Assembly: GCA_018304385.1 (NCBI GenBank)
Contig: JAGVWJ010000014.1
Coordinates: forward strand, 13,621 to 77,620
Reading direction: 5' to 3'
From: Candidatus Micrarchaeota archaeon
GTDB taxonomy: Archaea; Micrarchaeota; Micrarchaeia; Anstonellales; Bilamarchaeaceae
Length of the DNA stretch: 64,000 nt
Shown here: in pieces, positions 30,788 to 63,079 of the stretch
Layout: each line of letters opens with the position of its first letter
Numbering within the stretch: position 1 is the stretch's first letter
Translations under genes and position numbers: made by a program
The notes under the pieces: model-generated
Told to the model about the DNA's origin: nothing
Database searches by the model: none
What the model saw: only the letters and a program-made list of their open reading frames with translations

Positions 30788-30982
30788 ATGGAATTCCCAA
30801 TAAGATGTTTTAGTTGTGGCGGAGTTATCGGAGATTTATACGAACAATACAAATCATTATCAAAAGATAAAGGTCCTGAAGCAGCACTTAACGATCTTGG
30901 ATTAGATAGATATTGTTGTAGAAGAATGTTTGTTTCACATATCGAAATTACAGATAAGATATCGAAGTATCCAAGAATTTAG
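30788..30982 (+). CDS. rpoN: DNA-directed RNA polymerase subunit N (Rpo10)
   Basis: PIRCFSCG...RYCCRRM zinc motif, 64 aa. Confidence 0.95.
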   Translation: MEFPIRCFSCGGVIGDLYEQYKSLSKDKGPEAALNDLGLDRYCCRRMFVSHIEITDKISKYPRI

Positions 30983-31146: not shown

Positions 31147-31278
31147 GGGATCGTGAGGTAACCTGGCATCCTGCGAGCTTGGGGTGTTCGTTATCTGAGT
31201 GCGCTTTTTAGGTAAAAAGTGCCCAAAAACTGGGACGCTAACTAAAAAGTCCCAGAAATTCAAATCTCAGCGGTCCCA
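31147..31278 (+). tRNA. tRNA-Pro(GGG) with a 59-nt non-canonical intron in the T-arm/T-loop
   Basis: Hand fold. Acceptor GGGATCG (31147-53) pairs with CGGTCCC (31271-77), followed by discriminator A. The D-arm is AGG..GG..CCT. The anticodon arm is CGAGC-TTGGGGT-GTTCG (anticodon GGG at 31181-83, G37). The variable loop is TTAT. T-stem CTGAG (31195-99) pairs with CTCAG (31266-70), with T-loop TTCAAAT (31259-65). The 59 nt at 31200-31258 interrupt position 53/54 (or 54/55). The mature length is 73 nt. Confidence 0.8.
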
Positions 31279-31371
31279 TTTATTTTAATAAACTCACTAC
31301 AAAGACAAGGTAAATGACCTTAGTAAAGGATCGCAGTATACTAAATTTGGAGTTTAATAGAGGTGCATAAA

Positions 31372-31998
31372 ATGGTAGAGAAAACAGGATTGTTAGTAAA
31401 GCAGGAAAATTATTTGGAAGCAGGAATACATATAGGAACGAAAATACGAACGTATGATATGCGCAGATTCGTATTTAAACGCAGGGATGATGGCTTATTT
31501 ATCTTGGATTTACGTAAAGCTGATCAAAAACTTTTGCACGCTGCAAAGCTTCTTGCAAGATATAAACCAGAGGAAGTTTTAATAGTTGCGTCACGCGCAT
31601 ATTCTGGAAACCCAGCTGCAAAATTTTCTAAATTAACTGGAATCAGTACATGTAAAGGAAGATATACTCCAGGAACTATGACAAATCTTTCATATAAACA
31701 ATTTGCAGAGCCAAAAATATTATTTGTATGCGATCCAAAAGGTGAGAGGCAAGCTATTGCTGAAGCAGCGGCAAATGGAGTGCCAGTTATTGCGCTCTGT
31801 GATACAGATAATGAAACAAAGTTTATTGATTTAATAGTTCCGGTAAATAATAAAGGAAAACGCTCGCTAGCGCTTATCTTTTACATATTAACTAGAGAGA
31901 TAATGCTTGCACAAGGAAAAATTAATTCTTATGAAGAATTTACTCATGATATGAGCTATTTCGAGCAGGCAGAAGAAGCAGCGAAGAAAGCAGAATAG
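31372..31998 (+). CDS. rps2: 30S ribosomal protein S2 (uS2)
   Basis: YLEAGIHIGTK, VPVIALCDTDN and a GAGGTG 6 nt upstream of ATG 31372. Confidence 0.93.
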   Translation: MVEKTGLLVKQENYLEAGIHIGTKIRTYDMRRFVFKRRDDGLFILDLRKADQKLLHAAKLLARYKPEEVLIVASRAYSGNPAAKFSKLTGISTCKGRYTPGTMTNLSYKQFAEPKILFVCDPKGERQAIAEAAANGVPVIALCDTDNETKFIDLIVPVNNKGKRSLALIFYILTREIMLAQGKINSYEEFTHDMSYFEQAEEAAKKAE

Positions 31999-31999
31999 A

Positions 32000-33262
32000 T
32001 TATTTATAATTAGTCCTGCAGAAGTTTACATCAACTTGGTTATCTTGTAGATCGCAAACAGTTACATTCTGCTCTAATTTTGCAGCATTTGTATAACATC
32101 TAACATCCCATTCATCGCTAGAAAGATTTGCACAGTTTTCATGCCTTAATTTTAGATTATCTTGAATTGATGCTCGATAGCAGACATCCCTGGAACCTGG
32201 GTCAAAATTTAAATATTCGCATGCCTGCGGATTTCCGTATTCCTTTCCAACATCAATAAAACAATGCTCCTTTGCGATAGGCGCATATCTAGTAATCTGA
32301 ATACATCCTTGTAAATCGCTAGTCTCAATTGCATATTTTTTGTAGCAATCCCATCGCTTTAGAAGTTCTACTCCGTCACAAACAGCAGGATTCTTATCTC
32401 TTTTTGCAAAATGCGCGTAACAATTAACTGCATAAATCGTATCTTTTTTAGTTAGATCGTCACATGCACCGGGTCTATCTGTTTTTACTGCGTAAAGCGC
32501 TCGGCATGCATCAATTTCATCATCCTTTGGTAACCCATTACATTCATCCTTTTTTAAGGCAATACTAACACAAGCGTTCTGCTTGAAACGAATACCTAAA
32601 TCAGCACAAGCTTCAGCATTCACTGTTTGCTGCGCATATGCAAAGATGCATTCTTCATTTTTTTCACAGAAACTATAATTGTTATTTGCAAGTGCCTTGC
32701 ATAATGGTTTCTCATCAAGTTTTTTATAGAAACAAGAATCCACCTTTTCTATACACGGTCTTCTATCGTCCATTTCTAGATTACTACACAAATCAAGATT
32801 ATCCAATTTTACAGCGTGGGACCCAACACAAGTTTTCTTCTGGCTATAATCTGCTAGTTTCAGGCACGCCTCAACTGAATCTGTTGCTAATGCAACGAAG
32901 CAGTCTTGCTTCTTAGTTTCATTGGATATACTATCACAGGTTGTTGCGACTTTGGTTGATAACGCATTTTGCAATTGACAATCATCATCACAAACAGTGC
33001 TAACTGAAACATTTGGTTTTGTTACATTAGGGATAGCAATATTAGTACTTCCATTATCTGCTGGTTTTTTTCCAAAAAATAAGAAAAATATTGCGATTGT
33101 AATTATTAGAATAACTACAACAGTACCTAAATTAGTATATACTTTTCTTTTTTGTTTTTCTACTGGTTTCATATACTTGTATTTTTTTCCTTTGCTTGTT
33201 GGGATAATGGGAGAGATACTAAGTATGTCATCTTCTACCTTAGGGATCTGGTCTTTTGGCAT
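32000..33262 (-). CDS. cysteine-rich repeat surface protein (N-terminal membrane anchor)
   Basis: Start trimmed to MPKDQIPK, because the upstream ORF part is an inverted heptamer array. It has one TM (TVVVILIITIAIFFLFF) followed by more than 30 Cys in a roughly 20-25 aa periodic pattern (C...A/Y...C). Confidence 0.55.
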   Translation of the reverse strand: MPKDQIPKVEDDILSISPIIPTSKGKKYKYMKPVEKQKRKVYTNLGTVVVILIITIAIFFLFFGKKPADNGSTNIAIPNVTKPNVSVSTVCDDDCQLQNALSTKVATTCDSISNETKKQDCFVALATDSVEACLKLADYSQKKTCVGSHAVKLDNLDLCSNLEMDDRRPCIEKVDSCFYKKLDEKPLCKALANNNYSFCEKNEECIFAYAQQTVNAEACADLGIRFKQNACVSIALKKDECNGLPKDDEIDACRALYAVKTDRPGACDDLTKKDTIYAVNCYAHFAKRDKNPAVCDGVELLKRWDCYKKYAIETSDLQGCIQITRYAPIAKEHCFIDVGKEYGNPQACEYLNFDPGSRDVCYRASIQDNLKLRHENCANLSSDEWDVRCYTNAAKLEQNVTVCDLQDNQVDVNFCRTNYK

Positions 33263-33292
33263 GTTTAATACTAAAAAGTAAATATTTAATAA

Positions 33293-33366
33293 GCCATGAG
33301 CAGTGGGCAGTGAGCCGTGGGCCAACTCGTTTGGTGGCTCACTGCTCATGGCCCAATGCCCAAGGC
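33293..33366. repeat. inverted pair of GC-type heptamer arrays (5 + 5 units)
   Basis: Forward: gccatga gcagtgg gcagtga gccgtgg gccaact (33293-327). Reverse-oriented: tggtggc tcactgc tcatggc ccaatgc ccaaggc (33332-366). Confidence 0.85.
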
Positions 33367-53691: not shown

Positions 53692-54846
53692 CTACATTGC
53701 AATTTTAAGGGGTAAAACAACAAGATTATTTCTGAAGAAGTCTATTAGCTCATCTTTTATCTCATCAACTGTTATTTTTATCTCAAAATTTTCTATGTTA
53801 AAATCATTCATCAATAAATTTATATAAACCCAGAAATTGTAAAGAAGCATAGAAATTACAAAGAAAAAATACCTGACATTTCCTTCTTTGCATGAAGTTT
53901 TTATTCTAAACTGATCATGAACTCTATGAGCTGTTTCAATCCCCCAACGTTGTTTGTACAAATCACTTAAGAGTAAAACCTCATTCCTATATTCTGAAAC
54001 AGGAATATTTGTAACGTATCCATAAATTTTCTTTTCTTCATGCTCATTATCTTCGATAATTACAAGATCAATCCATTCAGATTCTTTGTCTGAATTACTT
54101 ATTTCATAGGCCTGAAAGACAGCAGGCAACCCTTTACATTCCTTTAGTACTCTTTCAAAATGAGAATCCTGTTTTGCTGGCATTAGAAAGTTAATTCTTT
54201 TTTCCCTAAACAGTGCAAAAACATCAGTTTCATAGAATTCCCTGTCAAGAAGAACCAAATCAGGCTTTATCCAATATGCATTAAGAAATTCCAGTGCTTT
54301 GTTTATTAGTGCAATTTTGTCATCTCCTCTGTAAACAGGATAAGCAAATAGAAGAAACCTTATTCCATTTACTACTAATGCAACTGTAAAAAACTTGAAA
54401 CAGTAGTAAGTGCCATCCTTTGGCTCATAGCCAGTTACATATTCACAGTTTTTATCTCCATAAAATGCTTCTGGGGTAAAATCAAACGCAATTACTACTT
54501 TTATGCTTGGGAATCTTCTCTGAATAAGCTTGATTGTTCTCCTACTTACAAATGTTCTCATCATTCTTTCTATGTTTTCTATTGTTGTTTTGTCTTTTAT
54601 ATGCAATAAAGCATCATCAGCAGAAGGATAATTACCTGTTTTTGATCTGTTTTCTGTTGATTTATTGCTTATAGCTGCATCAACAAACAGTTTCATTATC
54701 TGGGCTGAGTTATATCTTGCATTGGCTCTAAACTGGAAAAGATTGTAATTCAGCAGCTCACGGCTGAGCTTTTCCAGTATATTCTTCTCTTTTTCCTGTG
54801 AGCTAAAGGGTTTTAAGTTTTCTGGGAGGAAAACCATAGTAGCCAC
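53692..54846 (-). CDS. DDE transposase (IS4 superfamily, ISH3-like)
   Basis: C-terminal YKQRWGIETAHR (the Y-R-E-K region of IS4-type transposases) plus DREF and LLDREFY acidic motifs. The start is GTG at 54846 or ATG at 54837. Confidence 0.8.
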   Translation of the reverse strand: MATMVFLPENLKPFSSQEKEKNILEKLSRELLNYNLFQFRANARYNSAQIMKLFVDAAISNKSTENRSKTGNYPSADDALLHIKDKTTIENIERMMRTFVSRRTIKLIQRRFPSIKVVIAFDFTPEAFYGDKNCEYVTGYEPKDGTYYCFKFFTVALVVNGIRFLLFAYPVYRGDDKIALINKALEFLNAYWIKPDLVLLDREFYETDVFALFREKRINFLMPAKQDSHFERVLKECKGLPAVFQAYEISNSDKESEWIDLVIIEDNEHEEKKIYGYVTNIPVSEYRNEVLLLSDLYKQRWGIETAHRVHDQFRIKTSCKEGNVRYFFFVISMLLYNFWVYINLLMNDFNIENFEIKITVDEIKDELIDFFRNNLVVLPLKIAM

Positions 54847-62899: not shown

Positions 62900-63079
62900 G
62901 CTCCTGTAATCTAGCCCGGTCAAAAGAGTTTACAGTCTCGAGTCTCGAGTCTTGAACTATTTACTGATAGGATGTCAGACTCTCACTCTGAATACCCGAG
63001 TTCAAATTCAAACTTTTAGGTAAAAGTTTGATCAAAACTGCTTCGTTAATAGAAGCTTATGGAAATCTCGGCAGGAGCG
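62900..63079 (+). tRNA. tRNA-Glu(CUC) with two non-canonical introns (D-loop about 46 nt, T-loop about 59 nt)
   Basis: Hand fold. Acceptor GCTCCTG (62900-06) is perfectly complementary to CAGGAGC (63072-78), followed by discriminator G. D-stem ATCT (62909-12) pairs with GGAT (62970-73). The D-loop AGCCCGGTCAA differs by 1 nt from the canonical archaeal tRNA-Glu D-loop as I recall it. The anticodon arm is TCAGA-CTCTCAC-TCTGA (CTC at 62982-84). T-stem CCGAG (62996-63000) pairs with CTCGG (63067-71), with TTCAAAT at 63001-07. The exons sum to 75 nt. Intervening blocks are about 62924-62969 and about 63008-63066, and the exact junctions are ambiguous by a few nt. Confidence 0.65.
62928..62955 (+). 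repeat. heptamer array, GT type, 4 units, inside tRNA-Glu intron 1
   Basis: gtttaca gtctcga gtctcga gtcttga. Confidence 0.75.

Follow-up and report, generated by a model that had tools for sequence, protein, structure and literature searches.

The tRNAs of ARMAN-2 (Candidatus Micrarchaeum acidiphilum) are highly disrupted, and its pre-tRNA-Pro(GGG) carries two T-loop introns, at tRNA positions 53/54 and 59/60 (Fujishima et al. 2011, Nucleic Acids Res 39:9695, Fig. 1C, PMC3239211). The epsilon2 splicing endonuclease (EndA) of this archaeon cleaves in vitro both a strict bulge-helix-bulge (BHB) motif, in tRNA-Ile at 37/38, and a relaxed hBH motif, in tRNA-Cys at 59/60; the Pro precursor was not assayed (PMC3239211). 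Cleavage of relaxed BHB substrates by the same enzyme in vitro is also reported elsewhere (PMC5829648), and later papers describe the EndA specificity loop and an RNA complex, with the known epsilon2 enzymes restricted to ARMAN-1, ARMAN-2 and Mancarchaeum (PMC12397907; PMC5829648). For the Thermoproteales, non-canonical and multiple introns and their transposition between tRNA genes have been described (Sugahara et al. 2008 and Fujishima et al. 2010, cited in PMC4033280), and reviews give three as the maximum number of introns per tRNA gene, with intron transposition documented in Thermoproteales (PMC4033280). Here we describe a tRNA-Pro(GGG) gene at positions 31147–31278 of a 64-kb stretch of Micrarchaeota DNA (contig JAGVWJ010000014.1; the whole stretch is referred to as the window), in which a 59-nt insert separates tRNA positions 53 and 54. 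Judged from sequence comparison and folding, this is very probably a functional gene whose insert is a protein-spliced intron of the BHB type.

The window gene is the orthologue of ARMAN-2 pre-tRNA-Pro(GGG), as set by isoacceptor, phylum and intron position as published. A T-loop-interrupted tRNA-Pro(GGG) is therefore not new, since the same gene and intron position were published for ARMAN-2 in 2011; the window adds one more genome to the phenomenon described then, which in itself matters little. The two genes share their phylum, their isoacceptor, a BHB intron in the T-arm at 53/54 and a genome in which tRNA genes are highly disrupted. They differ in that a second, adjacent intron is reported at 59/60 in ARMAN-2, whereas the window T-loop UUCAAAU is continuous from 31259 and the 53/54 intron stands alone, and in that the ARMAN-2 Pro motif is described as strict hBHBh′, whereas the exon-side helix of the window motif consists of one pair. 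The relaxed T-loop hBH case from Micrarchaeota resembles the window intron in having a relaxed BHB, and there the enzyme of the phylum cuts a motif that lacks one outer helix; it differs in tRNA and position, and in missing the intron-side helix, whereas the window Pro intron misses the exon-side helix (HBh′). Likenesses to the Thermoproteales are introns at many positions other than 37/38, the T-arm included, with up to three per gene, similar introns in different tRNA genes, and an association with broad-specificity endonucleases. The Thermoproteales differ in belonging to the TACK superphylum and in having a heterotetrameric (alpha-beta)2 enzyme with a Crenarchaea-specific loop.

The initial annotation described the sequence of 31147–31278 correctly, and its proposal that removal of 31200–31258 leaves a four-armed tRNA-Pro(GGG) of 73 nt is borne out by ARAGORN, which calls the joined exons (31147–31199 and 31259–31278) as tRNA-Pro(ggg) with all four arms. 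The acceptor stem has 7 bp, the D-stem 3 bp and one mismatch, and the anticodon stem and T-stem 5 bp each. Read from the sequence, the tRNA keeps U8, A14, G18G19, A21, U33, G37, U54U55C56, A58 and C61, and no CCA is encoded in the 3′ exon (31259–31278). The unspliced gene is invisible to the same program, which makes no call on 31147–31278 with or without its intron option, a comparison that the initial annotation had proposed as a check. Rfam gives no match in the entire 64 kb, either at gathering score or at E<=1. These negatives on the raw window are uninformative, because the tools cannot see T-loop introns. A BLAST search of the window with the intron and the precursor, for extra copies or a second tRNA-Pro, returned chance 9–12-mers only. 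Directly 3′ of the gene, relatives have T5–T6 where the window has the T-rich TTTATTTT.

To place the insert in context, we compared 80 orthologous loci that were collected via rps2 from species-representative genomes, all of them Micrarchaeota metagenome-assembled genomes except one record that is evidently mislabelled (individual loci are given below by L numbers). The rpoN-adjacent position, which had been taken as a sign of authenticity, holds up in this set: the window gene lies between rpoN and rps2, where 22 relatives hold an intact tRNA-Pro(GGG). In these 22 of the 80 loci, ARAGORN places the uninterrupted gene 50–165 nt upstream of rps2. The spliced window tRNA is identical to such same-locus orthologues at 60–69 of 73 positions, and its exon junction, ATCTGAG/TTCAAATCTCAG (the slash marks the junction here and below), is the exact continuous sequence of the uninterrupted genes. 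This match is far beyond chance.

In most of the closer relatives, positions 1–53 are intact and are separated from a matching 3′ acceptor strand by 18–182 additional bases. Intron A, an insertion of 19–144 nt at 53/54, is present in 39 of the 80 loci; among the 77 informative Micrarchaeota loci its share is about half. In all but two of the 39 (37 of 39), a micro-exon of 5 nt, UUCAA, is followed by a further insertion, intron B; a B-type insertion without A occurs in 15 loci, and the loci that remain besides these and the 22 uninterrupted ones comprise one with a D-loop insertion only, one with no tRNA at the site and two that are uninformative. The A-only state of the window recurs in L001, its closest relative (Rps2 89% identical), which has a D-loop insertion in addition, and in L055. 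Across the intron-bearing loci, Rps2 is 59–89% identical to that of the window.

This distribution bears on the possibility that the gene is a pseudogene, a tRNA-Pro inactivated by an inserted intergenic hairpin element and giving no functional tRNA. Standard finders do miss the gene, and the insert both contains a T5 run and is similar to terminator-like hairpin modules that relatives have in the spacer 3′ of tRNA-Pro. We regard a pseudogene as most improbable, since the exons are intact with all stems and conserved tRNA residues kept, 39 deeply divergent genomes have the insertion at one and the same site, and both the T-stem and the BHB helices are maintained by compensatory changes. In addition, the published ARMAN-2 orthologue belongs to a near-complete tRNA set (PMC3239211).

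The insert begins with a single U, which is followed by hairpin 1 (31201–31222; 9 bp, loop AGGU), the linker CCAAAAA (31223–31229), hairpin 2 (31230–31255; 7 bp) and a terminal AAA. In the canonical BHB geometry, the exon base 5 before the splice site pairs with intron base -3 from the 3′ splice site, as in the pair 32:i(-3) of introns at 37/38. At the 53/54 register the window has a 4-bp central helix between two 3-nt bulges on opposite strands, formed by exon UCUG and intron CAGA (Table 1). The intron-side outer helix h′ is paired at 8 of 9 positions, 31201–09 with 31244–52, and 31201–31209 thus has two mutually exclusive partners, namely 31244–31252 in the BHB conformer and 31214–31222 in hairpin 1. 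When the window intron is shuffled and the register held fixed, 4/4 central pairs together with at least 8/9 outer pairs arise at a frequency of 1e-5 (about 1 trial in 100,000). The strict hBHBh′ form, with both h and h′, is not found: h′ is present, and h consists of the invariant pair A46-U55 only. The motif is therefore of the relaxed HBh′ type, a relaxed BHB-like motif having been anticipated in the initial annotation.

Homologous introns allow the pairing to be followed through evolution. Junction constructs at a fixed offset were built for the window and 38 loci (39 rows), with junctions set by sequence landmarks alone and not by structure, and for pair counts identical rows were counted once, which leaves 36 distinct rows. 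The intron end CAGR-AR/UUCAA is kept in nearly all loci. The central helix is fully paired in 36 of the 39 rows; over the distinct rows, 97.9% of its cells are paired, and compensatory double changes affect two of the four pairs, in L001 and L078. In the intron-side helix, 87% of cells are paired, double changes affect all nine pairs, and a single column shows as many as five pair types. On the exon side, the position beyond A46-U55 is unpaired in 35 of the 36 distinct rows. In 500 column shuffles, none of the five observed values was attained, and sliding the partner strand by 1–3 columns lowers pairing to 31–62%, from 85.9% unslid.

The most telling single case is L001, in which the same two exon positions are compensated in both their T-stem partner and their intron partner. 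Its T-stem is CCCAG/CTGGG as opposed to CTGAG/CTCAG in the window, and its intron ends in GGGAaa as opposed to CAGAaa, with exon UCCC opposite GGGA. In L078, the central helix reads UCCG/CGGG. The predicted BHB pairing of the precursor is shown by these changes to be backed by covariation.

The same alignment settles most of an ambiguity in the position of the 59-nt insert, which the initial annotation had placed at either 53/54 or 54/55. A U occupies both 31200 and 31259, so the sequence alone cannot separate the two registers, and the mature tRNA is identical either way. Splicing at 54/55 is nonetheless very unlikely: its central helix, CUGA against AGAA, has one of four pairs, compared with four of four and 3-nt bulges at 53/54, and a one-column slide over the 39 loci lowers pairing from 86% to 52–62%. 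The 53/54 half of the earlier placement stands and the 54/55 half does not.

Several observations weigh against a spliced BHB intron. The exon-side helix is essentially absent, and the central helix needs hairpin 2 to be partly opened. With the cloverleaf body enforced, the BHB conformer, at -39.2 to -40.3 kcal/mol, is not the minimum free energy fold; the alternative in which the mature T-stem is formed and the loop holds hairpins 1 and 2 reaches -42.9 kcal/mol, and the unconstrained global minimum lies at -49.4 kcal/mol. The T5 run inside the intron (31205–09) could act as an archaeal terminator. No splicing endonuclease was found in the 64-kb window by Pfam on 20 open reading frames (ORFs), and a tblastn search of the window with EndA from PDB entries 1a79, 4fz2, 2cv8 and 1r0v gave a best E of 0.8. 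Finally, among the 58 database candidates collected with the ARMAN-2 catalytic unit, no three-unit protein (~390 amino acids) was listed.

As to the energies, the BHB conformer lies within about 3 kcal/mol of the competing cloverleaf conformer, and the splicing-competent fold is predicted to be accessible, not dominant. The greater stability of the cloverleaf-type fold with T-stem and hairpins (-42.9 kcal/mol) is what one would cite for an insert that is never removed, the tRNA working with a 66-nt expanded T-loop that holds two hairpins. The tertiary interaction between T-loop and D-loop is universally required in tRNA, and a retained insert would destroy it. It would also leave unexplained the covariation of the intron 3′ end with the T-stem 5′ strand at the exact BHB register, and relatives have 0 to 3 insertions of widely varied length at BHB-compatible sites. 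Such a tRNA seems to us barely conceivable.

Oligo-T is the archaeal termination signal, and its presence within an essential tRNA gene is unexpected for an archaeon. The T5 run (31205–31209) and the single-stranded CAAAAAC linker (31224–31230) are conserved across about 30 genomes, and the flanking stems covary.

As regards the enzyme, homologues of the ARMAN-2 EndA catalytic unit in the database (58 candidates) are mainly single-domain proteins of 165–218 amino acids (PF01974), a few of them named Micrarchaeota or Micrarchaeia. The three-unit architecture may not be general in Micrarchaeota.

Two other kinds of intron were considered and rejected. A self-splicing group I or group II intron has a ribozyme core of hundreds of nucleotides; this is ruled out by the 59-nt length of the insert and by the lack of any Rfam match in the window at E<=1. 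An intron-encoded C/D box small RNA of the tRNA-Trp type is likewise ruled out: neither a C box (RUGAUGA) nor a D box (CUGA) occurs within 31200–31258, and Rfam returns no match to a small nucleolar RNA or other small RNA.

For the spliced BHB intron, we propose the following pathway. The gene would be transcribed into a precursor that measures about 132 nt without its leader and trailer, and in this precursor the T-stem 5′ strand is not paired with its mature partner. Instead, UCUG (31194–97) would pair with CAGA (31253–56) in the 4-bp central helix, 31201–09 and 31244–52 would form the intron-side helix, and both splice sites would be displayed in the 3-nt bulges AG/U and AA/U. A relaxed HBh′ motif of this kind would need a broad-specificity splicing endonuclease (an epsilon2 or (alpha-beta)2 EndA, or a type with a specificity loop), which may cut after 31199 and after 31258. 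An RtcB-type ligase would then join G53 to U54 (...AUCUGAG + UUCAAAUCUCAG), upon which the T-stem and T-loop could form and CCA would be added, because none is encoded. Cleavage by EndA and ligation by RtcB are proposed for this gene by analogy with the pathway established for archaea and with the in vitro results on ARMAN-2.

Table 1. Features of the tRNA-Pro(GGG) gene, its intron and related elements (window positions, except where a locus is named; a slash within a bulge marks the putative splice site)
Feature	Position	Strand	Basis or remark
tRNA-Pro(GGG) 5′ exon, 53 nt	31147–31199	+	tRNA positions 1–53; ARAGORN on joined exons; holds acceptor 5′ strand, D-arm, anticodon arm (GGG 31181–31183), 4-nt variable region, T-stem 5′ strand CTGAG
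Intron at tRNA position 53/54, 59 nt	31200–31258	+	Sequence and folding; homologous intron at same site in 39/80 loci
tRNA-Pro(GGG) 3′ exon, 20 nt	31259–31278	+	tRNA positions 54–73; holds T-loop UUCAAAU, T-stem 3′ strand CUCAG, acceptor 3′ strand CGGUCCC, discriminator A
BHB central helix, exon strand UCUG	31194–31197	+	Pairs with 31253–31256
BHB central helix, intron strand CAGA	31253–31256	+	Overlaps 3′ strand of hairpin 2
5′ bulge A-G/U	31198–31200	+	Putative splice site 31199/31200, from canonical 3-4-3 BHB geometry
3′ bulge A-A/U	31257–31259	+	Putative splice site 31258/31259, from canonical 3-4-3 BHB geometry
Intron-side outer helix h′, 5′ strand GCGCUUUUU	31201–31209	+	
Intron-side outer helix h′, 3′ strand AAAAAGUCC	31244–31252	+	
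T-rich TTTATTTT	31279–31286	+	Adjoins discriminator; likely archaeal termination signal, from sequence only
rpoN (RNA polymerase subunit N), upstream neighbour	30788–30982	+	Pfam PF01194 (RNA_pol_N), E = 1.4e-24
rps2 (ribosomal protein S2), downstream neighbour	31372–31998	+	Pfam PF00318
tRNA-Glu D-loop intron, 46 nt	62923–62968	+	Central helix CGGU/ACUG
tRNA-Glu T-loop intron at 59/60, 59 nt	63007–63065	+	Central helix UUCA/UGGA; T-stem is the outer helix
Module-bearing 3′ spacers and intron comparison	L025 2881–2940; L027 ~2880–2990; L004 ~590–650; L013 2841–2985; L014 2835–2990		

Beyond the window, the 53/54 Pro intron is no curiosity of ARMAN-2, and its clean covariation offers a natural alignment for the study of relaxed BHB recognition. 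A neighbour-joining tree of Rps2, a single protein of 205 amino acids and hence of low resolution, contains a large clade with both A and B in which A-less members are nested (L025, L024, L067, L010, L048); the window groups with L001 as its sister, both having A and lacking B, and the deeper branches mostly have uninterrupted genes. This placement suggests that intron A is an old acquisition followed by repeated precise losses, and the 53/54 Pro intron looks largely vertically inherited across a wide Micrarchaeota clade. The shortest examples of intron A (19–20 nt; L077 and L003) are plain BHB hairpins, and the longer ones look like a BHB hairpin with material inserted into its loop.

Intron B is about 37 nt long and forms a hairpin of 8–9 bp in the 37 loci, which fall among L004–L078 (for example L007 374–416); its loop, UACAAAYACCUGCG, is strikingly conserved. 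By BHB geometry this second intron of the 37 fetched relatives lies at 58/59, as opposed to the 59/60 reported for ARMAN-2: at the 58/59 register, the central helix of a canonical 3-4-3 BHB is complete in 34 of 37 loci, and we rejected the 59/60 register, at which it is complete in none of the 37.

Further insertions occur near 37/38 of tRNA-Pro(GGG) in L003, L008, L010, L031 and L067, and in the D-loop in L001 (2772–2786), L009 (~2831–2862), L020 (~2735–2768) and L077 (~2755–2790), so that L003, L008, L031 and L077 have up to three introns per tRNA-Pro gene. In L055, the A-only tRNA-Pro (2040–2176) lies about 850 nt upstream of rps2, and an orphan hairpin without tRNA exons, which matches intron B of the sister locus L040, adjoins rps2 (~2925–2975). 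In L015 (2925–2952), L018 (1990–2010), L034 (2900–2920), L020 (2920–2938) and L056 (2950–2964), the 3′ end of tRNA-Pro recurs 50–100 nt downstream of the gene as CACGACGRCCCCA with a T run after it. A GGGG stretch and a hairpin precede this CACGACGRCCCCA copy, which could fold with them as a minihelix resembling an acceptor and T-arm; the copy could be a duplication relic or an attachment site.

The window holds a second hidden tRNA gene. A profile of the 5′ module of intron A matched window positions 63014–63040, and this match led to a tRNA-Glu(CUC) gene at 62900–63079 (+) with exons at 62900–62922, 62969–63006 and 63066–63079. The gene is missed by ARAGORN and Rfam, and ARAGORN calls it only with both introns removed. 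Its T-loop intron (63007–63065) is a closer match to the hBH type than the Pro intron is. A T-arm-based scan of the window for other tRNAs came back empty, because both tRNA genes have split T-loops. A generalised split-tRNA scan, which works on the AT-rich window and is too noisy for wholesale use on GC-richer loci, found no further plausible tRNA in the window. As both window tRNA genes escape the standard finders and Rfam, DPANN tRNA sets are systematically under-called without split-aware tools. The split-tRNA scan also picked out, in L078 (1140–1263, +), an interrupted class II tRNA with a long variable arm and a T-loop insert of about 36 nt.

The T-loop introns of tRNA-Pro (31200–31258) and tRNA-Glu (63007–63065) are both 59 nt long and identical in 40 of 63 aligned columns, a score that none of 2000 shuffles reaches. 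They have a common order of elements, with a T/A-run hairpin capped by an AGGU loop, a CAAAAC-UG linker and a second hairpin. By sequence, the two introns look like paralogues that sit at different T-loop positions.

The hairpin-CCAAAAAC module of intron A also occurs in the spacer directly 3′ of tRNA-Pro in several genomes (Table 1), and in L029 it is found at an unrelated spot (2328–2420) with three CAAAAAC repeats. The similarity of the L025, L027 and L004 spacers to intron A of L013, L014 and L017 (z = 19–20) is as high as that among the spacers themselves (z = 16–20 over all these comparisons). A mere downstream relocation of intron A in L025 was rejected, the L025 spacer being orthologous to the L027 and L004 spacers.

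These likenesses raise an account of the origin of the intron that is compatible with its splicing, namely that its inner part is a copy of a repeated module, one that is moved or duplicated among tRNA 3′ flanks and the T-loop introns of different tRNA genes. The resemblance of the Pro and Glu introns (40/63 columns, 0/2000 shuffles), the matches of the module profile to tRNA-Pro 3′ spacers and to L029, and the spacer-to-intron similarity (z = 19–20) speak for it. Against this, the similarity is partly low-complexity (T and A runs), the module is confined within the window to the two introns, and the distribution of the Pro intron is for the most part accounted for by vertical inheritance. We consider such an origin possible, although on balance not the likelier case. 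Only tentatively, and with some doubt, would we go on to describe the inner intron (T/A-run hairpin, AGGU-like loop, single-stranded CAAAAAC linker, second hairpin) as a conserved RNA module that has spread over Pro 53/54, Glu 59/60 and the tRNA-Pro 3′ flanks of relatives. Because the linker is constant while the stems covary, the module might have a function of its own. If a mobile module were confirmed, Micrarchaeota would acquire or reshape tRNA introns through the copying of a terminator-like module into BHB loops, and transposition of tRNA introns would for the first time be indicated outside Thermoproteales. The module shared by the Pro and Glu introns and the 3′ flanks is in any case a testable lead on how such introns arise.

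By Pfam, the gene order runs from ribosomal proteins L18e, L13 and S9 through rpoN, the tRNA and S2 to EF-1alpha, and the G+C content of the window is 35.8%. The homologues of the window S2 bear the name Candidatus Micrarchaeota, and from these names together with the Micrarchaeota loci the host is a DPANN archaeon of the phylum Micrarchaeota, the phylum of ARMAN-1 and ARMAN-2. This agrees with the remark in the initial annotation that T-loop introns are known mainly from Thermoproteales and from a few DPANN or ARMAN genomes. The one discordant record, L035 (JBAZJG010000025.1), is titled Candidatus Omnitrophota bacterium, yet has an archaeal rps2 and a tRNA-Pro with introns A and B and is near-identical to L036; its title probably reflects a mistake in binning or labelling of the public record. 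Directly downstream of rps2 and convergent with it is an ORF of 449 amino acids (window 32000–33349, -) that is cysteine-rich, has an N-terminal hydrophobic stretch and is without a Pfam match. Farther along, at window positions 53692–54846 (-), Pfam finds a DDE transposase domain (PF01609, E = 1.4e-11) in an ORF that probably marks an insertion sequence.

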